From Bacteroidales bacterium UBA3623 (GTDB taxonomy: Bacteria > Bacteroidota > Bacteroidia > Bacteroidales > UBA932): DNA of 64,000 bases. The stretch is taken from positions 35,797-99,796 of the forward strand of contig DFLI01000051.1 of assembly GCA_002373715.1 (NCBI GenBank), written 5' to 3'. The translations under genes and the position numbers were made by a program. The notes below the pieces were generated by a model. That model ran no database searches, was not told the DNA's origin, and saw nothing but the letters and a program-made list of their open reading frames with translations. Below, piece after piece: positions 929 through 31,722 of this stretch (the stretch's first letter is position 1; the number at the start of each line of letters is the position of its first letter).

Positions 929-3280
929 ATGAACATTATCAAGAAGACCATTGAATTACCCGACGGTCGGGTAATCGAGATCGAGACCGGAAAACTGGCC
1001 AAACAGGCTGCCGGTTCTGCCGTTGTGAAAATGGGTGGCACCATGCTGCTGGCCACCGTCACCTGCGCCACGGAGGTGAAAGAGGGTACCGACTTCATGC
1101 CCCTCACCGTGGATTACCGAGAGAAATACTATGCCGCCGGCCGTTTCCCCGGAGGCTTCCTCAAGCGCGAGAGCCGTCCCTCCGACTACGAGGTGCTCAT
1201 CGCCCGCCTGGTGGACCGTCCCATCCGTCCCCTCTGGCCCTCCGACTTCCACCTGGAAGTTTTCGTAAACGTTATGCTCATATCGGCCGAGAAAGACATC
1301 CAGCCGGATGCTCTCGCCGGTCTGGCCGCATCGGCCGCCCTCGCCACTTCCGACCTCCCCTTCGGCGGCCCTGTGTCTGAGGTGCGCGTAGCCCGTATCG
1401 ACGGTCAGTTCGTGATTAACCCCGGTTTCGAGGACAACAAGAGGGCCGATCTGGACCTGATGGTGGCCGCTACCGAGGAGAACATCATGATGGTGGAAGG
1501 CGAAATGAACGAGGTTTCCGAGCACGACATGCTGGAGGCCATCAAGTTCGCCCACGAAGAAATCAAGAAGCACTGCCGCGTACAGAAGGAGCTCATGAAG
1601 GAGCTGGGTACCGACGTGAACAAGCGCGACTATCCTCACGATGAGGAGGATGAGGCCCTGAAGACCGCCGTCCACGAGGCTTGCTATAACAAGTGCTACG
1701 AGCTGGCTAAGAGCGCCAAGCCCAAGCACGAGCGCGAAGACGGCTTCAACGCCATCCGCGACGAATTCAAGGCCCAGTTCTCCGAAGAAGACCTGGAGCT
1801 GAAAGGTGCCATGATTGACCGCTACTACCATGACGTGGAGAAAGAGGCCATGCGCAACCTGGTGCTGGACGAGGGCAAGCGCCTGGACGGCCGTGCCACC
1901 AACGAGGTGCGTCCCATTTGGTGCGAGGTAGATTATCTGCCCTGCGCACACGGCAGCGCCATCTTCACCCGCGGTGAAACCCAGTCCCTGGCCACCGTTA
2001 CCCTGGGCACCAAGATGGACATGAAGGAGATGGACGAGGTTCTCATCCAGGACGACCAGCAGTTTGTCCTGCACTACAACTTCCCTCCTTTCGCCACCGG
2101 CGAAGCCAAGCCCCAGCGCAGCACCGGCCGTCGTGAAATCGGCCATGGTAACCTGGCTATGCGCGCCCTCAAGCCCGTGATTCCCACGGCTCCCGAATTC
2201 CCCTACGCCGTACGCGTAGTTTCCGATATCCTGGAATCCAACGGTTCCTCTTCCATGGCTTCCGTCTGCGGCGGCTGCCTGGCTCTGATGGATGCCGGTG
2301 TTAAGATCAAGAAGCCCGTTGCCGGTGTGGCCATGGGTCTGATTACCGACGCCGAGCGCCCCAACGACCGCTACGCCATCCTCACCGATATCCTCGGTGA
2401 CGAAGACCACCTGGGAGACATGGACTTCAAGGTAACCGGTACCAAGGACGGTATCACCGCCACCCAGATGGATATTAAGGTGGACGGCCTGTCCTACGAA
2501 GTGCTGGAGAAGGCCCTGGAGCAGGCCCGTCAGGGACGTCTGCACATCATGGGCGAAATGCTCAAGACCATCCCCGAGCCTCGTGAAGACTACAAGCCCT
2601 TCGTTCCCCGCATGGTTCAGATTGAAGTGGCTGCCGAATTCATCGGTGCCATCATTGGTAAGGGTGGTGAAACCATCCAGGGCATGCAGAAGGAATTCGG
2701 CACCACCATCACCATCGACGAGGTGGACAACGGTGACGGCACCACCAAGGGTGTTGTAGATATCTTCGGTACCGACAAGGCTGCCATGGACGCTACCCTG
2801 GAGAAGATCAAGGGTATCTGCGCCGTGCCCGAGGCCGGTCAGGTATACCACGGCAAGGTGGTGAGCATCCTGGAATTCGGCGCCTTCATCGAGATCCTGC
2901 CCGGTAAGGAAGGCCTCCTCCATGTGAGCGAGATTGCCTGGGGCAAGACCGACAAGGTGGAAGACGTGCTGAAGGTGGGAGACGAGGTAGATGTGAAGCT
3001 CCTCGAGATCGATCCCAAGACCGGCAAGATGCGCCTGTCCATGCGCGCCCTCACCGAGAAGCCCGAAGGCTATGTGGAGCCCAAGCGCGAAGGCCGCGGC
3101 CCTCGTCGTGAGGGTGGTGACCGTGGTCCCCGCCGCGAGGGAGACCGTCGCGAAGGCCGTGGCCCGCGCCGTGACGGAGATCGTGGCCCGCGCCGCGAAG
3201 GTGACCGCCACGATGGCCCCCGCAAGCCCCGCTTCGAGAATAACGAAGAGCCCAAAAACAACGAGCCCGACGTTTTCTAA
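929..3280 (+). CDS. pnp: Polyribonucleotide nucleotidyltransferase (PNPase)
   Basis: Two RNase PH domains (RLVDRPIRP; RREIGHG; SNGSSSMAS; DFKVTGT), KH and S1 domains; start reassigned to ATG 929 ([10 protein letters not shown]). Confidence 0.98.
3085..3225 (+). repeat. Degenerate coding tandem repeat (RGPRREGD-type) in PNPase C-terminal tail
   Basis: [47 protein letters not shown]. Confidence 0.8.
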
Positions 3281-3343: not shown

Positions 3344-4294
3344 ATGAAAAGACTGACCACTTCTCTCGTAGCTATCTTTTGCTGCCTCAGCGCCATTTGC
3401 CAGGAGTATGGCGTAGTGAATATTTCCGTATGCAATATGCGCCGCACGGCAGATTTTGACGCCGAAATGGTTTCCCAGGCCCTTCTGGGCACGCCGGTGC
3501 ATGTGCTGCAAATAAGCGACAACAGCAATGCCTGGCCGCAGGTGCAAACGCCGGACAACTACACCGGCTGGGTGCACTACGCCGGCATCAAGCGCATGAG
3601 CTATGAGGAGTACCACGCCTGGAACGTGGCCCCGAAGGTCATAGTCACAGAGCTTACCGGCCTGGTGTACAAGGACGCATCGGCCAAAAGTGCCGTGGTG
3701 TCAGACGTTGTGGCCGGAGACCGCCTGAAGTTCCTGGGCAGGAAAGGCAGTTGGCTCAAGGTGGGTTTCCCCGACGGCCGCACGGGCTACGTGAGCAAGA
3801 AGATTGCAAAGACGGAGGCCGATTGGCGCAAGACCCTGGATCAGAGCCCCGAAGCCATCCTTAAAACCGCTCAGGGCATGCTGGGTTTCCCCTACCTCTG
3901 GGCCGGCATGTCTCCTAAGGGCATGGACTGCAGCGGCTTCGTGCGCACTACCCTTTACATGCACGACATCATTACCCCGCGTGACTGCAGCCAGATTTAC
4001 CTGACCGGCGAACGCATCACAGACCGCAGCCAGCTGGTACCCGGAGACCTCGTGTTCTTTGGCCGCGTCCGGGAAGACGGCACTCCCCGCCCCTCTCATG
4101 TGGGCTTTTACATTGGCAATGGGCGCTTCCTCCATTCCATGGGCCTGGTGCAAATTGGCAGCTTCAACCCCGAAGACCCCCTGTACGACGCCTACAATAC
4201 GGGCCGATACCTCTTCGGAGACCGCATACTTCCTTACATTAATAAGATGGAAGGACTTAACACGACACTAACCAATCCCTACTATGCAGAATAG
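3344..4294 (+). CDS. SH3b + NlpC/P60 (C40) peptidase, YkfC/dipeptidyl-peptidase VI-like gamma-D-Glu endopeptidase
   Basis: Signal peptide; two SH3b-like repeats; PYLWAG..KGMDCSGF, PGDLVFF, HVGFY motifs; overlaps epimerase gene. Confidence 0.9.
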   Translation: MKRLTTSLVAIFCCLSAICQEYGVVNISVCNMRRTADFDAEMVSQALLGTPVHVLQISDNSNAWPQVQTPDNYTGWVHYAGIKRMSYEEYHAWNVAPKVIVTELTGLVYKDASAKSAVVSDVVAGDRLKFLGRKGSWLKVGFPDGRTGYVSKKIAKTEADWRKTLDQSPEAILKTAQGMLGFPYLWAGMSPKGMDCSGFVRTTLYMHDIITPRDCSQIYLTGERITDRSQLVPGDLVFFGRVREDGTPRPSHVGFYIGNGRFLHSMGLVQIGSFNPEDPLYDAYNTGRYLFGDRILPYINKMEGLNTTLTNPYYAE

Positions 4295-5414
4295 ACGCGA
4301 CTTTCTGAAAACAGCAGGCCTGGCAGCCGTAGGCGCCGGCCTCATGGGTTGCACCAGCGGCCCCCAAAAGTTCAACATTGTCAAAGGCGACGGAAAACTT
4401 CACATGAAGTTTTTCCCCTACGAGCTGAAACTGGCACACGTATTCACCGTGGCCTCCTACAGCCGTACCACCACGCCGGACGTGCAGGTAGAGATTGAGT
4501 GGGAAGGAGTTGTGGGTTACGGAGAGGCTTCCATGCCCCCGTACCTGGGCCAGAGCGTAGAAACGGTTACTACCTTCCTCAATAAGGTAGACCTTTCCCA
4601 GTTCACAGACCCCTTCCAGATGGAAGACATCCTCACCTACGTGGACAGCCTCTCCCCGGGAGACGCCGCCGCCAAGTGCGCCATAGATATAGCCCTGCAC
4701 GACCTCGTGGGCAAGCTCATGGGCCAGCCCTGGTACCGCATCTGGGGCCTGGATGCCGCCAAGGCTCCTTCCACCACCTTCACCATCGGCATAGATACTC
4801 CTGAAGTGGTGAAGGAGAAAACCCTGGAGGCTGTGGGCAAGTTCAATATCCTTAAGGTAAAGGTAGGTCTTGACACGGATGTGGAGATGATTGAAACCAT
4901 CCGCACCGTAACGGATGTGCCGCTGGCTGTGGACGCCAACCAAGGCTGGAAAGACCGCAGCAAGGCCCTGGACGAGATTTTCTGGCTCAAGGAGCACGGC
5001 ATTGTAATGGTAGAGCAGCCCATGCCCAAGGAAATGCTGGACGACATTGCCTGGCTCACGGAGCGCAGCCCGCTGCCCATCTTTGCCGATGAAAGCATCC
5101 AGCGCATGAAGGACATCCCTTCGCTGGTGGGCGCCTACAACGGCATCAACATCAAGCTGATGAAGTGCACCGGCATGCGCGAGGGCTGGAGAATGGCCAC
5201 CATGGCCCGTGCCCTGGGCATGAAGGTGATGGTGGGCTGCATGACGGAAACCTCCTGCGCTGTGAGCGCCGCCGCCCAGTTCTCCCCCTACGTAGATTTT
5301 GCCGATTTGGACGGCAACCTGCTCATAGCCAACGACCGCTTTGACGGCGTAAAGGTGGTGAATGGCAAGCTCACGCTGCCGGACCGCCCGGGTATCGGCG
5401 TTATTCCGCTTTAA
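4284..5414 (+). CDS. L-Ala-D/L-Glu (dipeptide) epimerase, enolase superfamily, with Tat/lipoprotein signal
   Basis: NRRDFLK twin-Arg and LMGC lipobox; KVKVG, DANQGW, EQP, ADES, NIKLMK, DLDG motifs. Confidence 0.92.
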   Translation: MQNRRDFLKTAGLAAVGAGLMGCTSGPQKFNIVKGDGKLHMKFFPYELKLAHVFTVASYSRTTTPDVQVEIEWEGVVGYGEASMPPYLGQSVETVTTFLNKVDLSQFTDPFQMEDILTYVDSLSPGDAAAKCAIDIALHDLVGKLMGQPWYRIWGLDAAKAPSTTFTIGIDTPEVVKEKTLEAVGKFNILKVKVGLDTDVEMIETIRTVTDVPLAVDANQGWKDRSKALDEIFWLKEHGIVMVEQPMPKEMLDDIAWLTERSPLPIFADESIQRMKDIPSLVGAYNGINIKLMKCTGMREGWRMATMARALGMKVMVGCMTETSCAVSAAAQFSPYVDFADLDGNLLIANDRFDGVKVVNGKLTLPDRPGIGVIPL

Positions 5415-21804: not shown

Positions 21805-21823
21805 AAATCAACAGTGTACGCAC

Positions 21824-21967
21824 ATGAACAAAGAAAAGATAAACAAATTGGATTATGAGTCCCCACAGCTAATTGTGATGGAAATCCAACCGGGCCATTC
21901 GTTGCTGCAGGCCAGCAAAGACGATTATATCGACGGCGGGGACGATACCTGGGGAATAACTGTATAG
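21824..21967 (+). CDS. 47-aa small peptide with YxxP leader (candidate RiPP-like precursor); not in ORF track
   Basis: MNKEKINKLDYESPQLIVMEIQPGHSLLQASKDDYIDGGDDTWGITV*; fills intergenic gap and stops 7 bp before next gene. Confidence 0.75.
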   Translation: MNKEKINKLDYESPQLIVMEIQPGHSLLQASKDDYIDGGDDTWGITV

Positions 21968-21974
21968 GGAGGGA

Positions 21975-22826
21975 ATGAAGATGAGAAAGAATAATCTGTT
22001 TGTGCTACTTGCCGCCGCCATGTCGGCCGGCACTGTCTTCTACTCTTGCAACCGATTTGAAGAACAACTGCAGCCGCAAGAGCCACAGGAGCAGGGAACA
22101 TCTGCGTACACCCTGAAGGTGAAAGCCGAAAAAGGAACGGCCACCAAAGCCTTGACCGATGAAGGGGTTACCTTGAAAGCCTCCTGGGCAGCGGGAGATG
22201 ATGTAGAAGTGTACAATGTGGGTGGGGATCACCTTGGAACGCTGGTTCCTGCAGTGAGCAGTACCTCTTCGACAACCTTGTCGGGCAACTTGACAACAGC
22301 CCCTGCGATGGATGAAGTCCTAACGCTCAAATTCCGTTCGAACAACTATGCCACCCAGCAGGGAACTTTGGAGTATATAGCAGCCAACTGCGACTACGCT
22401 ACGGCAGAGGTCACCGTGACGGCGGTTAGTGGTAATAGCATTGAAACCACTCCGGCCCATTTCGTGAGCCAGCAGGCCATTGTGAAATTTACGCTCAGGA
22501 ATTCCGGCGATACGGGCGATTTGAACGTAACTCAGTTGCTGGTTAATGATGGCACCAACACCTATACCATAACCCCGGTCTCTGCAACCCCCAGTGTGCT
22601 CTATGTGGCCATTGAGGGTTTCTCTGAGCAAACCGTCACCATGACGGCCAACACCGGGAGCGCATATTATGACAGGACCAAGGCCGATGTCACGTTCGAG
22701 AATGGAAAATTCTATCGGATAAAAGCCCTGATGACGCAACGAACGTTGAAAAGTATCTCCATCAGTGGACTTGAACCGGTTCCCATGTATTACTATGGCG
22801 GGGCTCTTCAGATTAATGCACGCTAA
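21975..22826 (+). CDS. Fimbrillin/Mfa1-like (type V pilin) lipoprotein, possibly C-terminally truncated
   Basis: FYSC lipobox; ATKAL processing motif, WAAGDDVEVY, Y..Q.GTL.YI...CDYATA, QAIVKFTL, ENGKFY. Confidence 0.7.
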   Translation: MKMRKNNLFVLLAAAMSAGTVFYSCNRFEEQLQPQEPQEQGTSAYTLKVKAEKGTATKALTDEGVTLKASWAAGDDVEVYNVGGDHLGTLVPAVSSTSSTTLSGNLTTAPAMDEVLTLKFRSNNYATQQGTLEYIAANCDYATAEVTVTAVSGNSIETTPAHFVSQQAIVKFTLRNSGDTGDLNVTQLLVNDGTNTYTITPVSATPSVLYVAIEGFSEQTVTMTANTGSAYYDRTKADVTFENGKFYRIKALMTQRTLKSISISGLEPVPMYYYGGALQINAR

Positions 22827-26327: not shown

Positions 26328-27401
26328 ATGAAAAAGAAAAGCATCATCGTCCTGGCTAGCATAGTTGCCGTCTGTGCCATCGGCCTTCTTGCTTCCTATC
26401 TGTTCAGCTGGCCCGTCAGCAACGACAATGCCAGCGGCAATATAGGCAAGTCTTCCCGCTTCTCGCGCAAAACCGCTACCGAGCGCATAGATAATATGGA
26501 GGAGCTCCTCAGGGCCGATGAAGACTACAAGAACAGCATCGTTCTGGCCTATTCGGTTATGCAGGCCCGCGCCATTCAGTTTGGCAATCTAGTGGATATG
26601 TCCAACCAGGTAGCCGGAGACATCCCTGAATTTGAAGGCGTGCTCAAGGACATGAACGACATGGCTCCCATCTTTACCAATGTAGCCAACGCCCTGGTAG
26701 AAGCCGGTAATAACCTTAATACTGTTCTGGCAGGCAATTCCTGCCCCGATGTAACCCAGAGCACCATCAACGCTTCCCTGTCTTACACCACTCTCCAGAA
26801 ACAGAATCACCTGGCCAACCGCTTCATCGACACCACGGACAGGTACGTCAAGAAGGCCGATGCCACCGAGCAGCTCATGCTGGTGCGTGACCTGTGGCTG
26901 GAATACCAGCAGATGACCGCCGCCCTGGAAGGAGACAAAAAAGCCGCCAAAGAGCTGGATAAGAAGGGCGTGCTCCTGACTGCCGAACAGGCATTAAAAG
27001 CCAGCGAATCCTTTAATGTAGTAAATCTGGCAGGCATCGTTACCAGCAATGATATGCTCGGCGGACTTGTGCCCATGGCGATTTTCGATCCGCTCCGTAA
27101 CGTTGAAATCAGCCCTGATATCTTGAACAGTCAAACCACTGACTTGCTTGGATTCTCGGTTTCCAATCCCGCAAATATTTACTTCGGCCGGCTTTTTTAC
27201 TTCAACGAAGGTGTTGATAATCTCGTTAAGAACAGTTTGAACCAGCCGGAACTTTTTGTTAATGGGCGACCCAGAATCCTTGATGAGAGAGTCAAAATCC
27301 TTAATGCCGGGCCCAAGATCATTAATATGACGCAAATCAACGATGTCATCTGCCAAACCGCCAATGGCAACGTAGAACGCCTGGAGCTCAAACACAGATA
27401 A
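26328..27401 (+). CDS. Hypothetical N-terminally anchored helical protein
   Basis: 357-aa ORF with one N-terminal TM and own promoter; no recognised motif. Confidence 0.7.
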   Translation: MKKKSIIVLASIVAVCAIGLLASYLFSWPVSNDNASGNIGKSSRFSRKTATERIDNMEELLRADEDYKNSIVLAYSVMQARAIQFGNLVDMSNQVAGDIPEFEGVLKDMNDMAPIFTNVANALVEAGNNLNTVLAGNSCPDVTQSTINASLSYTTLQKQNHLANRFIDTTDRYVKKADATEQLMLVRDLWLEYQQMTAALEGDKKAAKELDKKGVLLTAEQALKASESFNVVNLAGIVTSNDMLGGLVPMAIFDPLRNVEISPDILNSQTTDLLGFSVSNPANIYFGRLFYFNEGVDNLVKNSLNQPELFVNGRPRILDERVKILNAGPKIINMTQINDVICQTANGNVERLELKHR

Positions 27402-27413
27402 TTCTTCGGGGAT

Positions 27414-28052
27414 TTATTTTAGTAGCTGGGCAAAATCATCTATAACAGAATCGGCTCCGGCGGCCAGGAGTTCTGCGCGATTGGAATTGCCGTAGCTTAC
27501 GCCGCAGGTGCGGGCCCCGGCGCCGGCACCCATTCTAATGTCTACAGGCATATCCCCTACTACCAGGGCTTCATCGGCCTGATAGCCCAATTCGCGAAGA
27601 GTTTTTAGCACGGGCTCCGGGTCCGGCTTGGCCTTGCTCACATTGTCTCCTCCCAGCACATAGGAGAAGTACTGCGCCACGCCCATTTCCTGCAGGAATT
27701 CGTTCAGGGACTGGTTGGAGCGGGAAGAAGCTACGGTGAGTACATAGCCTTTTTCATGCAGCACCGCCAGTGTTTCCTTTACATGCGGGAACAGCACGGG
27801 TAAATACTTATCCTTAAGGGAATAGAACACTTCCCGGCATTTGACGGCCCAGGCGGGAATTTCTTCCTCCTGCACTCCCGGGAACAGCGTGCGGATGCAG
27901 CCCGCCATGGGAAGGCCAATCACAGCCGTAATCTGTTCCGGAGTAGGCACGGGATATTGCATCTGCCGGGCCAGTTCCTGGTTGGTTTCTACAATGAGGC
28001 GGTTGGTGTCGGCCAGGGTGCCGTCAAAGTCAAAGATATAGAGCTTAATCAT
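27414..28052 (-). CDS. HAD-family phosphatase (Gph-like)
   Basis: FDFDGTLAD, KPDPEP, VGDMPVDI motifs; 6 bp downstream of ABC gene. Confidence 0.92.
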   Translation of the reverse strand: MIKLYIFDFDGTLADTNRLIVETNQELARQMQYPVPTPEQITAVIGLPMAGCIRTLFPGVQEEEIPAWAVKCREVFYSLKDKYLPVLFPHVKETLAVLHEKGYVLTVASSRSNQSLNEFLQEMGVAQYFSYVLGGDNVSKAKPDPEPVLKTLRELGYQADEALVVGDMPVDIRMGAGAGARTCGVSYGNSNRAELLAAGADSVIDDFAQLLK

Positions 28053-28058
28053 AGATTT

Positions 28059-29678
28059 TCAAACCTTTACCACGTGGTCTGTGAAGCTGGCCGTGGCCTC
28101 CCGGTGGGAGATAATGAGGATGGTTTTGCTGCCGTGATAACGGGAGTGGATGTTCTTCAGCATGCGCTCTTCAGTGTTGGCATCCAGGGCCGATGTGCTC
28201 TCGTCCATGAGTAGCACGGTGCCGGGGTGCAGCAGGGCGCGGGCCACGGCAATTCGCTGAGCCTGGCCTTCGGAAAGGCCGCTGCCCACTTCCCCGCAAG
28301 GGGTGTCCAGTCCTTTGGGCAGCTTGAAGACAAAATCGGCCACAGCGGTTTCCAGGGCTTCCCGCATCTGCTCTTCGGTAGCCGATGGCGCCGCCAGCTG
28401 CAGGTTGCTGCGGATGGTGCCGCTAAGGAGGCTGTTCCCCTGCGGAACATAGAGGAAATTGCCGCGCAGCGCCACCCCGCTGGGCTGTCCGTCCAGGGTT
28501 ACTGTGCCCTCGGAGGGCTGAAGAAGTCCCATAACCAGCCTTAGGAGCGTACTCTTACCAATGCCCGTAGGGCCGGCAATGAGGGTGGTGGCGCCCGCCG
28601 GGAAAGTGCAGGAGAAATCCTTCAGAATGATTCTTTCACTGCCCGGGTAGCTATAGGTTACGTGAGAGACTTCAATTTGAGGGGCCTTATCCAGCAGCAC
28701 CGGCGGCACGCTGGGTTCCTCTTCCAGTTCCTGCAGTTCCTGCAGACGCTCTATGGAGGTGAGGGCGGTAATAACGGCAGGCACCTGGCGGCCAAATTCG
28801 GCTATGGGCCGCTGCACCTGACCCACCAGCTGCAGGAAGGCTGTCATCATACCATAAGTAACCGTTCCGTGCAGGATGCCGAATACACCCCAGAGGAAAG
28901 CGGCGGCGTGGCCGGCCTGGAAACCCAGGAACATGCATCCGCGCGCCACGGCGTTAAAATTGAGACGTTTGCGGGTATTGTCTTCTACGTCTTTCTGCAG
29001 CCAGCCAAACTTCTCCAGCACGCGTTCTACATTGGTGAGCGTGAGCACCAGCACGCGGTGCTGCAGGCTCTCCTGCATAACCTGCTGGAGTTCGCTCTCG
29101 CGGGCGCGAATGGCAGCCATAATCTTGCGAAGCTGCTTGAAAAAGAGTTTGGAGCCAAACACGGCCGAGAACATGAGGATGAGCAGCACCCACAACAGAT
29201 TCGGCGCCAGCATAAGCAGATAAGTGGAGGCGGCCACCAGCTGTAGCAGGGTTACCACCAGCCCGGGAATACGGGCCGATAGCAGCTCTGCCACCACGCG
29301 GATGTCTTCCTCCAGACGGTTCACCGTGTCTCCGGAGAGGAAACGGTCACGGCCGTCCCAGCGGCTTCTTAAAACATGGCCGAAGAGCTGGGCGCGAAGG
29401 ATGTTCTGGGTTTTTACCTGGCAGTAGCTCTCCCACCAGCCGGAAACCAGGAAGGCGGCCACTTGCAGCACCAGCACCCCCACGAAAATCCAGATAGCGG
29501 GCCAGAGCGGGAAGCTGCTTTGCCCCGTGGCAATGTCCACCAGCTGTTTACTGGCCCATACGAAAGCCAGGGAAGCGGCAATGCGGACCAGGCCCACGGC
29601 CAGGCTCACTACCATCCTCCATCGGACGGGAGCGCTCATGCCCCAGAGGGCTTTCATGCTTTCCCTGAAGCTAATCAT
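28059..29678 (-). CDS. ABC exporter, fused permease/ATPase
   Basis: About 6 TMs; GPTGIGKST Walker A, LSEGQAQR signature, LLMDE Walker B, SHR H-loop. Confidence 0.93.
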   Translation of the reverse strand: MISFRESMKALWGMSAPVRWRMVVSLAVGLVRIAASLAFVWASKQLVDIATGQSSFPLWPAIWIFVGVLVLQVAAFLVSGWWESYCQVKTQNILRAQLFGHVLRSRWDGRDRFLSGDTVNRLEEDIRVVAELLSARIPGLVVTLLQLVAASTYLLMLAPNLLWVLLILMFSAVFGSKLFFKQLRKIMAAIRARESELQQVMQESLQHRVLVLTLTNVERVLEKFGWLQKDVEDNTRKRLNFNAVARGCMFLGFQAGHAAAFLWGVFGILHGTVTYGMMTAFLQLVGQVQRPIAEFGRQVPAVITALTSIERLQELQELEEEPSVPPVLLDKAPQIEVSHVTYSYPGSERIILKDFSCTFPAGATTLIAGPTGIGKSTLLRLVMGLLQPSEGTVTLDGQPSGVALRGNFLYVPQGNSLLSGTIRSNLQLAAPSATEEQMREALETAVADFVFKLPKGLDTPCGEVGSGLSEGQAQRIAVARALLHPGTVLLMDESTSALDANTEERMLKNIHSRYHGSKTILIISHREATASFTDHVVKV

Positions 29679-29941
29679 TCCGCTACGCCTTGTTCTTTCC
29701 AGCTGTCGGCCAACTTTTGAGAATCGGCCAATGCTACATCGGCCGATACGTCATATTTTTCCTGCAGGAGGGCGGCCAGGTCTTCCACCATGAAGTCTTT
29801 CCCCTTCACCTGTTCCCACAGCCAGGCAGCACTGGCATTGAGGGATAGCAGTTTGTTAAAGTTCACCTGGGCCAGGCCTTCGCCCACCACCACGTTTTCT
29901 CCGCAAATGGTGCGGAGGATGAATCCATCTTTAATTCTCAT
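29675..29941 (-). CDS. PqqD-family protein / RiPP recognition element (RRE)
   Basis: 88 aa: MRIKDGFILRTICGE.VVV...LNASAAWLWE...EDLAALL.EKYDV...A..D...L..W...G; start ATG 29941. Confidence 0.88.
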   Translation of the reverse strand: MRIKDGFILRTICGENVVVGEGLAQVNFNKLLSLNASAAWLWEQVKGKDFMVEDLAALLQEKYDVSADVALADSQKLADSWKEQGVAE

Positions 29942-30357
29942 TGTATTCTTCTGTATATACCCAGCAGGATGCGCCTGAGGGGCAGCAGGTGCTTCCACAC
30001 CTTTCCCTTGGAGGGTTTAAACGTTTTATCTCCTCTTACTATGGCCACCACCGTACCTATCACGTCTGCCTTTCCGCAGGTTTCCAGCTGGTCCAGGTTG
30101 CCGTCTCCCATGAGGGTGAGGCGGTTGCGGTTTTCCAGCATAACGCGGTGCATTACATATCGGTCTTCTAAGCGGGCCAGCACTATGTCTCCCTCTTCCA
30201 CGTCCGGCAGCCAGCGCAGCACCACGCTGTCTCTGCCTTCCTTGATAAAGGGCAGCATGCTGTTTCCTTTGGGGGCCAGGGTTACGTCCCGGCCTTCTGC
30301 TAACAGGGAGGCTGCTTCTTCCAGCAGCACTTCGTTGGGGAGGGTTAGCTTAGTCAT
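29938..30357 (-). CDS. S24/S26-family peptidase (Ser-His variant)
   Basis: KGNSMLPF, GDIVLA, YVMHRV, MGDGN motifs; start ATG 30357 overlapping upstream stop. Confidence 0.85.
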   Translation of the reverse strand: MTKLTLPNEVLLEEAASLLAEGRDVTLAPKGNSMLPFIKEGRDSVVLRWLPDVEEGDIVLARLEDRYVMHRVMLENRNRLTLMGDGNLDQLETCGKADVIGTVVAIVRGDKTFKPSKGKVWKHLLPLRRILLGIYRRIQ

Positions 30358-31234
30358 GGACGGTTTGGTAGCATAAGTGGGCGGCCTCCGCGTTGGGGAG
30401 GCAGTCCAGGGAATAGCAAGGGACGGTGGCCACCAAAGCTTCCAGCGTGCGGTGCCAGCCGTCGGATAATTGTTTAAAAGGCCGGAAGGCCGATGCGGAA
30501 GCCATGAGCGAAGCATAGGCTTCCAGCTTGTTCAGCCGCCGGATGGCGTTATGAGGGGCCTGCTGCAGGCGCACCACGGCCCCAACAGGGACGTCTTTGG
30601 CCTTGTAACAAGGGGTTTTCCCGCTCCAGGGACTGCCGTACACGCGGATGCTGCCATCTGGCAGAAGGCGCAGGATGGGGTTGTCGTCGTTCAAGAGTTC
30701 CGTTTCCGGGATGTTTTCCAGCCAAAGGCGGCTGTGGGTGCTTTTGCCCGTTCCGCTGCGGCCCAGGAAAAGGTATCCCTTCCCTGCCTGCATAACCACG
30801 GAGGAATGCATTTCCAACGCACCCTGATGGGCGGTGGAAAAGGCAAACAGCAGCATAAGGGCATTGTTAAGTCCGAATTGAGGGTCTGTTCCGGTGAGGA
30901 AAAGCTGTGCCTCAGAAAAGTCTTTCTGCGCCTTGAGCCATGCGGCTACGGGCGCTTCGGGCAGCGGACGCATGCGGAAGACATAGCCTTCCGCCAGATC
31001 CCAGATGGCAATCTCCGGAAAACCGGGGCCATCCTGCGTACAGAAGAGCGGCGCTCCCGCCGGCTCTTCCCACTTCCCTACCTGCTCTATGCTAAAGAGA
31101 GGCCCCCGATCAAGCCGGGGGTGACGGTCGCCGTCCTGCATCTCAAATGGCCGAAGATTCTCCATGCCTTCCAGCAGGGCTTCATCGGCCCTTATCCGGA
31201 ATGCGAATCCCGCCACTTGATAGCACTTTAGCAT
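30350..31234 (-). CDS. HPr-kinase/PEPCK-type P-loop kinase-like protein
   Basis: MHSS, FLGRSGTGKST Walker A, LLNDD, YGSPWSGK; start ATG 31234. Confidence 0.8.
   Translation of the reverse strand: MLKCYQVAGFAFRIRADEALLEGMENLRPFEMQDGDRHPRLDRGPLFSIEQVGKWEEPAGAPLFCTQDGPGFPEIAIWDLAEGYVFRMRPLPEAPVAAWLKAQKDFSEAQLFLTGTDPQFGLNNALMLLFAFSTAHQGALEMHSSVVMQAGKGYLFLGRSGTGKSTHSRLWLENIPETELLNDDNPILRLLPDGSIRVYGSPWSGKTPCYKAKDVPVGAVVRLQQAPHNAIRRLNKLEAYASLMASASAFRPFKQLSDGWHRTLEALVATVPCYSLDCLPNAEAAHLCYQTVHD
31096..31126 (-). repeat. CGTC-type REP palindrome inserted in frame in kinase gene
   Basis: Minus strand cgtcacccccggcttgatcgggggcctctct; 25/31 identical to 59224-59254; encodes RHPRLDRGPL. Confidence 0.75.
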
Positions 31235-31302
31235 TTTTTTTAAACTTTTATACAAAGATAACACATTTTCTTTTGTATATTTGTCAAGATTCACAGCACG
31301 TT

Positions 31303-31722
31303 ATGAAGAAAATCGTTTCGTCCCTGCTTCTTCTGGCCCTGCTTCTTCCCCAGGCAAGGCTTCACGCGCAACAATTGCACAAGATCACCTTTACTCCCCA
31401 ATGGACGGCCCAGTCCCAATTTGCCGGCTATTACATAGCCCTGGGCATGATGGACGGCATGGTATTCCAGGGAGAAAGCATCGACAACATTCGCGAGTGG
31501 CAGTTCCTGGCCTACACCGACGGCCTCAACGAAGCTGAGAACCCGGAGTACGAGCTCTTCGGCAACGACCGCCTCATTGAGATTATGGACACCCTGGGCA
31601 GCGAAAATTCTGCCACCGTAATCCGGGTGCTGCAGGAAGAAGTGGAGAAGCACCGTAACGGCGCCACTCCCAGCGACGACCTCACTCTCCTTTGCCTCAG
31701 ACTAACCAAAAATAAGAAATAA
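31303..31722 (+). pseudogene. Chimeric deletion remnant: NMT1/THI5-like solute-binding N-terminus fused to SpoIIE phosphatase C-terminus
   Basis: Signal peptide + FTPQWTAQSQFAGYYIA joined at ALG to LGMMDG...YTDGLNEAEN...FG.DRL...SDDLTLL. Confidence 0.75.

Follow-up and report, generated by a model that had tools for sequence, protein, structure and literature searches.

The four minus-strand genes at 28059-31234 of the 64,000-nucleotide stretch of DNA analyzed here (the window) probably form a RiPP maturation and export cassette that parallels the linear polyphosphorylated peptide (LPP) pathway known from Bacillota. The genes run in the order kinase, peptidase, RRE, ABC exporter, with overlaps of 8, 4 and 4 nt between neighbors; a HAD gene lies 6 bp downstream of the exporter. 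These five packed genes, their overlaps and the 6-bp gap are all present as an earlier note on this DNA had described them, and its statement that the operon encodes neither a precursor nor a cyclase, B2 protease or radical SAM enzyme was confirmed. The features referred to below are as follows.

30350-31234, minus strand: ScmC/HprK-like P-loop kinase, ATG at 31234, 294 aa (NCBIfam/Pfam, AF2/Foldseek)
29938-30357, minus strand: signal-peptidase-I-like soluble peptidase of the ER/archaeal type, 139 aa (Pfam, family profile, AF2)
29675-29941, minus strand: stand-alone PqqD-like RiPP recognition element (RRE), 88 aa (Pfam PqqD, family profile)
28059-29678, minus strand: MsbA-like ABC half-transporter, 539 aa (ABC_membrane and ABC_tran)
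27414-28052, minus strand: HAD-IA phosphatase, PpaX/phosphoglycolate-phosphatase-like, 212 aa (HAD_2, 3e-44)
21824-21967, plus strand: candidate precursor peptide, 47 aa (translation, family alignments, peptide HMM)
21975-22826, plus strand: lipoprotein gene, 283 aa, starting 7 nt past the peptide gene

A longer GTG frame extends the kinase to 31294 as an alternative start. Contigs from metatranscriptome libraries span all of the genes, which does not prove transcription.

The LPP system of Bacillota was published in May 2026 as the lppA-K-B-S-D-N cluster of Paenibacillus alginolyticus, and its gene logic was demonstrated experimentally in that phylum (Popov et al., Nat Commun; PMC13381572). 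LppK adds phosphate to core Ser3 one to four times, and leader cleavage by LppS (S29/H68/D93) depends on the RRE LppB; the Pfam/TIGR labels in the data are PqqD, NTP_transf_5, TIGR02228 and TIGR02203 (PMC13381572). The window cassette resembles this system in its HprK-like kinase, discrete PqqD RRE, MsbA-like exporter, lack of a cyclase and small leader peptidase, a signal-peptidase-I-like Ser-His-Asp enzyme that has an N-terminal helix; many related Bacteroidales cassettes also carry NTP_transf_5. The candidate precursors are alike as well, with YxxP leaders, a conserved Ser ∼19 residues on and acidic, Gly-rich cores that often have an aromatic residue close to the C terminus. The differences are that the Bacteroidales host is a diderm of another phylum; the gene order in the window is K-S-B-D; the host genome and most close relatives lack NTP_transf_5; the HQxIxFET part of the LPP logo is missing from the leader; the precursor genes mostly lie away from the cassette and pair with lipoprotein genes; the RRE is no closer to the presumed LppB entry than to lasso RREs; the window cassette has no capsule-locus context; and the chemistry of the Bacteroidales system is a prediction. 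The cyclase-less, RRE-guided pathway to linear phosphopeptides proposed in the earlier note stands as far as the sequence reaches (conserved cassette, link to YxxP peptides, LPP precedent); by analogy it appears to be a Bacteroidales variant of an LPP-like family, and is not without precedent.

On the LPP model, the 88-aa PqqD-like RRE would bind small precursor peptides at their YxxP leader, and the ScmC/HprK-like kinase would phosphorylate a serine of the core, perhaps more than once; as phosphosite, the best candidate is the family-conserved Ser 19-20 residues past the Tyr, which corresponds to Ser31 in the 21824 peptide. The Ser33-His70-Asp85 enzyme would dock on the RRE-leader complex via its N-terminal helix and then cut the leader off, and the MsbA-like ABC half-transporter would move the product over the inner membrane. 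As the host genome lacks the optional NTP_transf_5 (LppN-type), no further phosphate decoration is expected. This lack, the lack of a precursor in the window operon itself and the fact that no step past the outer membrane, needed in a diderm host, is encoded here all count against the LPP-like reading.

The kinase-peptidase-RRE(-exporter) cassette has a wide distribution in Bacteroidales, with the kinase in 58 of 401 sampled species genomes of the order and in 47 of 60 genomes of the host genus. The conservation of the neighborhood across Bacteroidales, which the earlier note had singled out as a check, was borne out: the peptidase lies beside the kinase at 18/20, 8/8 and 73/80 loci and the RRE at 17/20, 8/8 and 68/80. 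The exporter follows the RRE, in the order kinase-peptidase-RRE-exporter, at 33 of 80 related loci; NTP_transf_5, the LppN equivalent, is present at 22 of 80 and also in eight checked loci. The arrangement is not due to chance: dozens of other genomes share the gene order. It could still be supposed that no peptide pathway exists here, the kinase acting on a small metabolite or HPr beside unrelated neighbors, and the weak sequence likeness of the kinase to characterized enzymes would fit. Conservation already disfavors this idea, to which we give hardly any credence: kinase, peptidase and RRE are neighbors in many families, including some from other classes of the phylum, fusions occur in some genomes and the genes co-occur with the YxxP peptide family. 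LPP had been declared restricted to Bacillota (PMC13381572); an LPP-type kit turns up commonly in gut and rumen Bacteroidales.

The HAD gene, adjacent to the cassette and probably co-transcribed with it, is a neighbor and no conserved component of the system. In three samples of related loci, none has a HAD gene next to the cassette (0/20, 0/8 and 0/80; 108 in total); in the closest relative the HAD ortholog (63% identical) is on another contig, and a 52% identical ortholog also occurs in a genome without a kinase match. Membership in the system was ruled out on these grounds, and the suggestion that the enzyme is a phosphate "eraser" falls with the absence of the gene from all 108 loci.

Family matches of the kinase are weak (ScmC TIGR04249, 5e-6; PEPCK_ATP, 4e-5; HprK-related kinase A, 5e-3; NCBIfam, Pfam). 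The ScmC match reaches 26 bits against a model cut-off of 125 bits, the Atlas clusters nearest to the kinase are labeled ScmC (Pfam 38.1, PF27840), and Hpr_kinase_C gave no match at all in the profile search. The AF2 model (pLDDT 92.9) retrieves PEPCK (2.8e-7) and the HPr kinase/phosphatases 1knx and 1ko7 (∼1e-4) in Foldseek; 21 relatives keep the Walker A motif SGTGKST, H143 and NDD182-184 without change. We propose that the enzyme phosphorylates Ser in the precursor core. In another reading, which we judge unlikely, the pathway is RRE-guided but the ScmC-like protein has a role other than that of a Ser kinase: it might activate the peptide, by adenylylation or in some other way, or be an ATP-dependent scaffold, giving a product chemically unlike LPP. 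The weak ScmC and PEPCK matches, the missing Hpr_kinase_C match, leader and core motifs unlike those of LPP and the assignment of ScmC, by its NCBIfam name, to a radical-SAM cassette speak for it; however, the Walker A and acidic motifs are intact, the fold fits PEPCK/HprK kinases, the only characterized enzymes of such a gene context (PadeK and LppK) are Ser kinases, and the conserved Ser lies at nearly the LppA Ser3 distance from YxxP. The SynChlorMet (SCM) cassette, whose ScmC is the best named family match of the window kinase, differs in that none of the five window-operon genes has a radical SAM/SPASM domain.

The peptidase matches Pfam Peptidase_S24 (E = 2.5e-6), and its family profile places human SEC11C and SEC11A at the top (2.4e-5), with SpsB and LexA behind. 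The GNSM...HR motif read earlier is present as GNSM...MHRV, and all 20 relatives compared retain S33, H70, R71, G84, D85 and N87. An AF2 model (pLDDT 90.2) has a clan SF beta core and an N-terminal helix at residues 8-20; this helix is charged, and there is no N-terminal membrane anchor. Natural kinase-peptidase fusion proteins exist in other genomes. By analogy with LppS, we propose that the enzyme is an RRE-dependent leader peptidase.

The claim that 29675-29941 encodes a PqqD/RRE protein is upheld by Pfam (PqqD, E = 1.3e-12) and by matches of the family profile to the lasso B1 proteins TfuB1 (6jx3; 2e-5) and TbiB1 (0.017). Further matches are 9x8z_B, a "PqqD family protein" that we presume to be LppB (0.067), and 9x90_B (0.073); that the actinobacterial lasso TfuB1 outscores 9x8z_B counts against the LPP-like reading. 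It is the one PqqD gene found in the assembly and would be the equivalent of LppB or of lasso B1. The transporter (ABC_membrane, 2.6e-26; ABC_tran, 4e-25; Pfam) has no C39 peptidase domain and matches MsbA, CydC and type I secretion models at 1e-61 to 1e-68, yet under their cut-offs; this MsbA-like half-transporter is the proposed exporter, equivalent to LppD.

The paeninodin lasso system (PadeK, B1, B2, C, D and a nucleotidyltransferase) likewise has an RRE, an HprK-like Ser kinase, an ABC exporter, an optional NTP_transf_5 and [Y/W]xxP leader recognition; the window system differs in lacking a macrolactam synthetase and a transglutaminase-like B2 protease. Its product must be linear, because there is no macrolactam synthetase and a serine peptidase takes the place of the cysteine protease. 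The genome search for a lasso cyclase or nucleotidyltransferase that the earlier note had called for returned neither from the host assembly (84% complete), in which the sole Asn_synthase match is MnmA and no NTP_transf_5 was found; nor was Transglut_core3. A paeninodin-type cluster that has decayed, losing its cyclase and B2 protease and remaining non- or partly functional, would account for these absences, for an RRE profile nearest to lasso B1 proteins and for the HprK-like kinase, NTP_transf_5 and ABC exporter that paeninodin-type clusters also hold (PMC13381572). We consider such decay very improbable, as dozens of species in many families share the cyclase-less layout and have invariant catalytic residues, and the protease slot is filled by a dedicated peptidase, which belongs to a different class and in some cases is fused to the kinase; the metatranscriptome-library contigs, which cover all the genes without proving transcription, also tell against it.

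The earlier note had placed the precursors elsewhere. This was partly right: two of the three candidates in the host genome are on other contigs (C56 and C36), but the third, the sole match of the peptide HMM in the window (21824-21967), is 5.4 kb away from the operon and convergent with it, and other genomes have a precursor beside the cassette. The 21824 peptide has a YxxP leader (Y11, P14), a conserved Ser31 (Tyr+20) and a core that is acidic and rich in Gly, with a Trp close to the C terminus. Its family shares Y-x-x-P, a beta-strand-like stretch and a Ser at Tyr+19/20, compared with Tyr+18 for the phosphorylated Ser3 of LppA. At 14 of 80 loci a family peptide either precedes the kinase by 21-153 nt or comes right after the NTP gene, and members adjoin cassettes in genomes G109, G158, G258 and G460; within 7 kb of the cassette, no recognizable peptide was found at 66 of 80 loci, which counts against the LPP-like reading. 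The putative small peptide substrates in Bacteroidales are usually encoded elsewhere in the genome. The kinase is present in 11 of 15 peptide-positive genomes vs. 47 of 386 others (Fisher p = 2e-7, a value that is too favorable, since related genomes do not count as independent). The peptide family is shown to be physically and phyletically linked to the cassette.

Complex prediction for the RRE with the 21824 peptide gave a score of 0.40 (best control 0.00), graded as weak support, with at least 83% contact agreement between runs and a partner pLDDT of at least 51; the pass may reflect memory, because RRE-leader complexes are already solved. Among solved complexes, 58 of 80 attained this mark, as did 2 of 110 mismatched pairs, and scores of 0.60 or below comprise 7 of the 80 solved complexes and both mismatches that passed.

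A gene with a lipoprotein signal lies 5-60 nt behind most family peptides, so that the pairing at 21824/21975 is typical of the family; the LPP-like model leaves this tight pairing unexplained. The window lipoprotein has no Pfam match, and the partner in G109 has a weak Mfa_like_1 (fimbrillin-like) match (2.9e-4). The enzymes might process or phosphorylate the adjacent, pilin-like lipoproteins or other envelope proteins, with the peptides as regulators or chaperone-like partners instead of substrates. Although the near-universal pairing, the fimbrillin-like match and the signal-peptidase fold of the peptidase agree with this, it seems quite improbable: the peptidase, with its charged helix, is unanchored, the peptides bear the RRE-binding YxxP motif and RREs bind short leaders (PMC13381572), and in several genomes the peptide lies in the cassette, 21-153 nt upstream of the kinase, with no lipoprotein between.

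The published survey also holds "SpI + other RRE" groups, SSN clusters 4 and 9 from Clostridia, 6 from Brocadiales and 8 from two Bacteroidales whose peptidase is fused to an ABC transporter, which its Supplementary Data 1 enters as "RRE others" with no kinase, precursor or function reported (PMC13381572). These groups resemble the window cassette in having a small S24/S26-like peptidase (G-x-SM-x-P, HR) beside a stand-alone RRE, and the clostridial "RRE others" start MKIKEGF..., the window RRE MRIKDGF.... The window peptidase and transporter, unlike those of cluster 8, are separate genes, but a peptidase-ABC fusion of this ∼750-aa type was also met here, as a 762-aa frame after the kinase in genome G295.

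The five tightly packed minus-strand genes proposed in the earlier note are upheld on reanalysis, with successive overlaps of 8, 4 (peptidase and RRE genes) and 4 nt and a 6-bp gap before the HAD gene:

30350-31234, minus strand: ScmC/HprK-like kinase gene (weak NCBIfam/Pfam matches)
29938-30357, minus strand: peptidase gene (Peptidase_S24, 2.5e-6)
29675-29941, minus strand: PqqD/RRE gene (PqqD PF05402, 1.3e-12)
28059-29678, minus strand: ABC exporter gene (ABC_membrane and ABC_tran, without a C39 peptidase domain)
27414-28052, minus strand: HAD gene (HAD_2, 3e-44)

Domain searches, like the earlier reading, show the operon to lack a cyclase, a B2 protease, a radical SAM enzyme and a precursor. 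Searches of the whole assembly (2.07 Mb, 148 contigs, 84% complete) gave neither a lasso cyclase nor a nucleotidyltransferase: the sole match to Asn_synthase (PF00733) is MnmA, and Transglut_core3 (PF13471, for the B2 protease) and NTP_transf_5 (PF14907) have zero matches. As the assembly is incomplete, these searches leave the absence of a macrolactam synthetase or B2 protease unproven; in related loci neither a cyclase nor a B2 protease was noticed, by inspection of flanking genes alone. The operon's PqqD gene is the only one in the assembly.

The gene content invites comparison with the linear polyphosphorylated peptide (LPP) family, defined in 2026 in Bacillota by Popov et al. (PMC13381572). 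Its core comprises the precursor LppA, with leader YxxPxVLxHQxIxFETxxS, the HprK-like kinase LppK, the discrete RRE LppB, the SpI-like peptidase LppS, the MsbA-like pump LppD and the NTP_transf_5 protein LppN, with no cyclase (PMC13381572). LppK adds 1-4 phosphates to core Ser3 of LppA, which is Tyr+18; leader removal by LppS (S29/H68/D93) requires LppB and is poor on unphosphorylated peptide, and no activity was seen for LppN (PMC13381572). The discussion of that paper confines LPP and paeninodins to Bacillota, and its Supplementary Data 1 lists unanalysed SpI + RRE groups from Clostridia, Brocadiales, Acidobacteriota and two Bacteroidales, all classed as “RRE others”; the two Bacteroidales entries are fusions of the peptidase with an ABC transporter (PMC13381572). 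No other description of the Bacteroidales cassette (the kinase, peptidase, RRE and exporter genes) was found in the literature searched.

G31, S33, M34, P36, H70, R71, G84, D85 and N87 of the peptidase are invariant in an alignment with 20 relatives. The best matches of its family profile are the human ER signal peptidase subunits SEC11C and SEC11A (2.4e-5), with which the SM-x-P, HR and GD-x-N boxes align; bacterial SpsB and LexA rank lower. An AF2 model (pLDDT 90.2) has an N-terminal helix (8-20), a clan SF β core and C-terminal helices. Invariant residues, SEC11 match and model therefore point to a soluble Ser-His-Asp enzyme of the ER/archaeal signal peptidase type, which bears out and sharpens the Ser-His enzyme of signal-peptidase fold first suggested. 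Unlike housekeeping signal peptidase I (LepB / SipW), it has no N-terminal membrane anchor, helix 8-20 being charged rather than hydrophobic, it is 139 aa long, and its relatives sit beside a kinase and an RRE. Natural fusion proteins of ~430-500 aa (P0126-P0141; P0128 compared) join an N-terminal ScmC-like kinase to a C-terminal Ser-His-Asp peptidase, whereas in the window they are encoded by two genes with an 8-nt overlap.

The kinase has weak NCBIfam and Pfam matches only (ScmC TIGR04249, 5e-6; PEPCK_ATP, 4e-5; HprK-related kinase A, 5e-3); the newest Pfam places the family as ScmC (PF27840), the name also given by Atlas. The fold of its model (pLDDT 92.9) resembles PEPCK at 2.8e-7 and, at about 1e-4, HPr kinase/phosphatase. 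All of 21 relatives keep the Walker A motif SGTGKST, H143 and N182-D-D184 unchanged; profile and fold matches suggest an HprK-like enzyme at the superfamily level only. In SynChlorMet (SCM) systems the radical SAM/SPASM proteins ScmE and ScmF are present, whereas the operon proteins have no radical SAM domain, and the kinase scores 26 bits against the TIGR04249 cut-off of 125, below equivalog level. The exporter matches the MsbA model TIGR02203 at 1e-61, under the model cut-off; in the published data LppD carries this TIGR02203 label too (PMC13381572).

Single-sequence PDB searches with the RRE, peptidase and kinase were uninformative, and family profiles were required. The RRE profile matched the lasso RREs TfuB1 (2e-5) and TbiB1 (0.017), and also 9x8z_B (E = 0.067), which we take to be LppB, and 9x90_B (about 0.07); the two 2026 PDB entries that it matches are described as “PqqD family protein” and “lasso peptide biosynthesis PqqD family chaperone” (0.07). 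On these profile E-values the window RRE is not demonstrably a member of the LppB clade. Paeninodin-type lasso clusters carry a cyclase (C) and a B2 protease, neither of which was found in the 84%-complete assembly of this genome, and a lasso remnant was set aside as the main reading.

Sampling of the order gave the kinase in 58 of 401 species genomes (~1 in 7); within the genus, 47 of 60 genomes carry it, or 23 of 27 when only those of high quality are counted. All eight same-genus loci examined read kinase-peptidase-RRE-exporter, with NTP_transf_5 also present in two. At 20 loci drawn from many families, the peptidase was detected at 19 (directly beside the kinase at 18), the RRE at 17 and the ABC exporter at most, and a 370-aa gene at eight or more encodes NTP_transf_5, the Pfam family of LppN. 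A kinase motif scan of species-level genomes returned at least 555 relatives, of which the best 80 are without exception Bacteroidales MAGs of gut or rumen origin (Cryptobacteroides, Limimorpha, Paludibacteraceae, Prevotella, Muribaculaceae, Rikenellaceae and Bacteroidaceae). These best 80 of at least 555 have, no more than 7 kb from the kinase, the peptidase at 73 loci, the RRE at 68, the exporter at 52, NTP_transf_5 at 22 and HAD at 0; the window layout (K-S-B-D) is their commonest, with 33 loci. This check of neighborhood conservation shows kinase, peptidase and RRE genes co-occurring across many Bacteroidales families. In one Bacteroidales genome the kinase is followed by a 762-aa peptidase-ABC fusion that resembles a Paludibacter protein in the published table (PMC13381572).

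A second layout, exporter-peptidase-RRE-(NTP_transf_5)-kinase, occurs at L042, L043, L044 and L051 (genomes G258, G361, G138 and G135); its ABC protein matches the window exporter in the ATPase half only, so a different transporter subfamily seems to have been recruited. Among Bacteroidia other than Bacteroidales, the phylum sample gave only two hits. Outside the class, loci L186, L187, L189 and L192 (G536, G481, G640 and G483) have adjacent kinase-peptidase pairs with an RRE or ABC gene near. A contig titled Subdoligranulum sp. (Bacillota; L173) carries a 43%-identical kinase and a peptide of the Bacteroidales family, and may be mis-binned or transferred.

The HAD gene fares differently. It adjoins the cassette in 0 of 108 related loci (20 from many families, 8 same-genus and the best 80 of at least 555); in the closest relative, whose kinase is 68-70% identical, the HAD ortholog (63% identical) lies on a different contig, and an ortholog is also present in a same-genus genome with no kinase match. 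The role of phosphate “eraser” offered for it in the earlier note was rejected because HAD-cassette adjacency is never conserved. On the other side, the kinase is preceded by a 490-bp divergent region that holds a 139-aa frame (31303-31722, plus strand, within frame 31147-31722) with a signal-peptide-like N terminus and a partial SpoIIE/PP2C match (PF07228, 2e-13) covering profile positions 103-191 of 192, the C-terminal half only; it looks like a gene remnant or fusion. In G152 (L050), a genome of the same family, the cassette is preceded by an intact REC-PP2C gene and an M28 peptidase.

A peptide-HMM search found no precursor within the operon. A 47-aa candidate lies 5.4 kb away (21824-21967, plus strand), with Y11-x-x-P14, a strand-like stretch and Ser31. 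A word-based homolog search with this peptide returned only itself; weak same-genus matches proved real, and a profile search then gave more. Strict YxxP regular expressions missed most members of the family, which the HMM recovered. Members share [Y/F]-x-x-P, alternating hydrophobics and then h-[L/C]-x-x-S, whose Ser falls at Tyr+19 or +20; the cores, acidic or rich in Gly, often carry Trp or Phe close to the C terminus. This genome (G000) has three, the window peptide and two on other contigs (loci L079/L085):

Contig C56, ~4250-4384, minus strand: 44-aa YxxP-leader peptide, same family
Contig C36, ~1619-1753, minus strand: 44-aa YxxP-leader peptide, same family

A lipoprotein gene begins 12-15 nt after each of the C56 and C36 peptide genes, and nearly every trans-encoded peptide gene has one 5-60 nt behind it, in one case with a weak fimbrillin-like match. 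Across the order sample, the kinase is present in 11 of 15 peptide-profile-positive genomes compared with 47 of 386 others (Fisher p = 2e-7, related genomes not being independent); the 11 cover seven families, and two of the four peptide-positive genomes without a kinase are evident false matches. Some precursors are linked. G109 reads, on one strand, peptide-lipoprotein-peptide-lipoprotein-kinase-peptidase-RRE-NTP-exporter; in G158 the kinase has a peptide gene immediately 5′ of it, and the cassettes of G258 and G460 have peptides at a distance of 1.5-5 kb. Among the best 80 of at least 555 loci, 14 have a peptide within 7 kb of the kinase, including four peptides at three loci that are 21-153 nt upstream of it, and seven peptides directly follow NTP_transf_5.

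Complex prediction for the RRE and the window peptide gave a score of 0.40 against 0.00 for the best control. Of 80 solved complexes 58 attained the score mark used, as did 2 of 110 mismatched pairs; scores of 0.60 or below came from just 7 of the 80 solved complexes and from both mismatches that passed. Between runs at least 83% of contacts agree, with a partner pLDDT of at least 51. Since similar RRE-leader complexes had already been solved, the predictor may be drawing on memory, and the prediction weakly supports binding of the window peptide by the RRE.

Set against the LPP core, the window operon shares a Ser-His-Asp SpI-like peptidase (S33, H70, D85) beside a discrete PqqD-like RRE, a kinase that is HprK-like at the superfamily level, an MsbA-like exporter and, as far as an incomplete assembly tells, a lack of macrolactam synthetase and B2 protease. 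By sequence comparison, the Bacteroidales family appears to have five of the six LPP core components and this genome four. Two LPP features seem to be missing from the window system: an NTP_transf_5 gene, which the LPP core has as LppN and which occurs in 22 of the best 80 of at least 555 cassettes, and a clustered precursor with the full leader motif. The operon has no precursor of its own, and the window peptide has YxxPxLI and a Ser at Tyr+20 but not the HQxIxFET part. Because the match is partial and the RRE is not demonstrably of the LppB clade, we file the system as Bacteroidales LPP-like, with precursors mostly unlinked and coupled to lipoproteins.

The data show the protein families, their catalytic residues, conservation and linkage; phosphorylation, its site, cleavage and the order of steps we infer by analogy with LPP. 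The RRE would bind the YxxP leader, and the kinase would then phosphorylate a core Ser, the candidate being the conserved one at Tyr+19/20. The RRE-leader complex would recruit the Ser-His-Asp peptidase, which would cut off the leader, and the ABC half-transporter would export the product. We know of no biological role for LPPs. A speculative reading, to which we give a rather low probability, is that a sister branch of LPP is widespread in gut and rumen Bacteroidales, its phosphopeptides being encoded in trans before fimbrillin-like surface lipoprotein genes and exported to work with these lipoproteins (e.g., in pilus/adhesin assembly or surface signaling) and not as free antibiotics. The LPP-like assignment would extend LPP logic from Bacillota to a dominant gut/rumen phylum and add many and varied natural precursors that conserve a candidate phospho-serine; the peptide-lipoprotein linkage is a testable hint at function, and RiPP mining limited to clustered precursors would overlook such systems.

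Contigs from metatranscriptome libraries of three studies contain parts of all five genes and of the peptide gene at 95-100% identity; RNA libraries may hold DNA, so transcription is unproven by these contigs, and stretches without such cover are uninformative. Two of them from different studies, X4 and X17, start at 21818, 6 nt before the window peptide ATG, and share the same 9 unmatched letters ahead of it; either a junction between strains or a contig end common to both could account for this start. At 27399-27402, contig X15 (from a 95-99% identical strain) has 17 + 1 extra bases within the 12 bp that separate the convergent stop codons of a 357-aa gene and the HAD gene.
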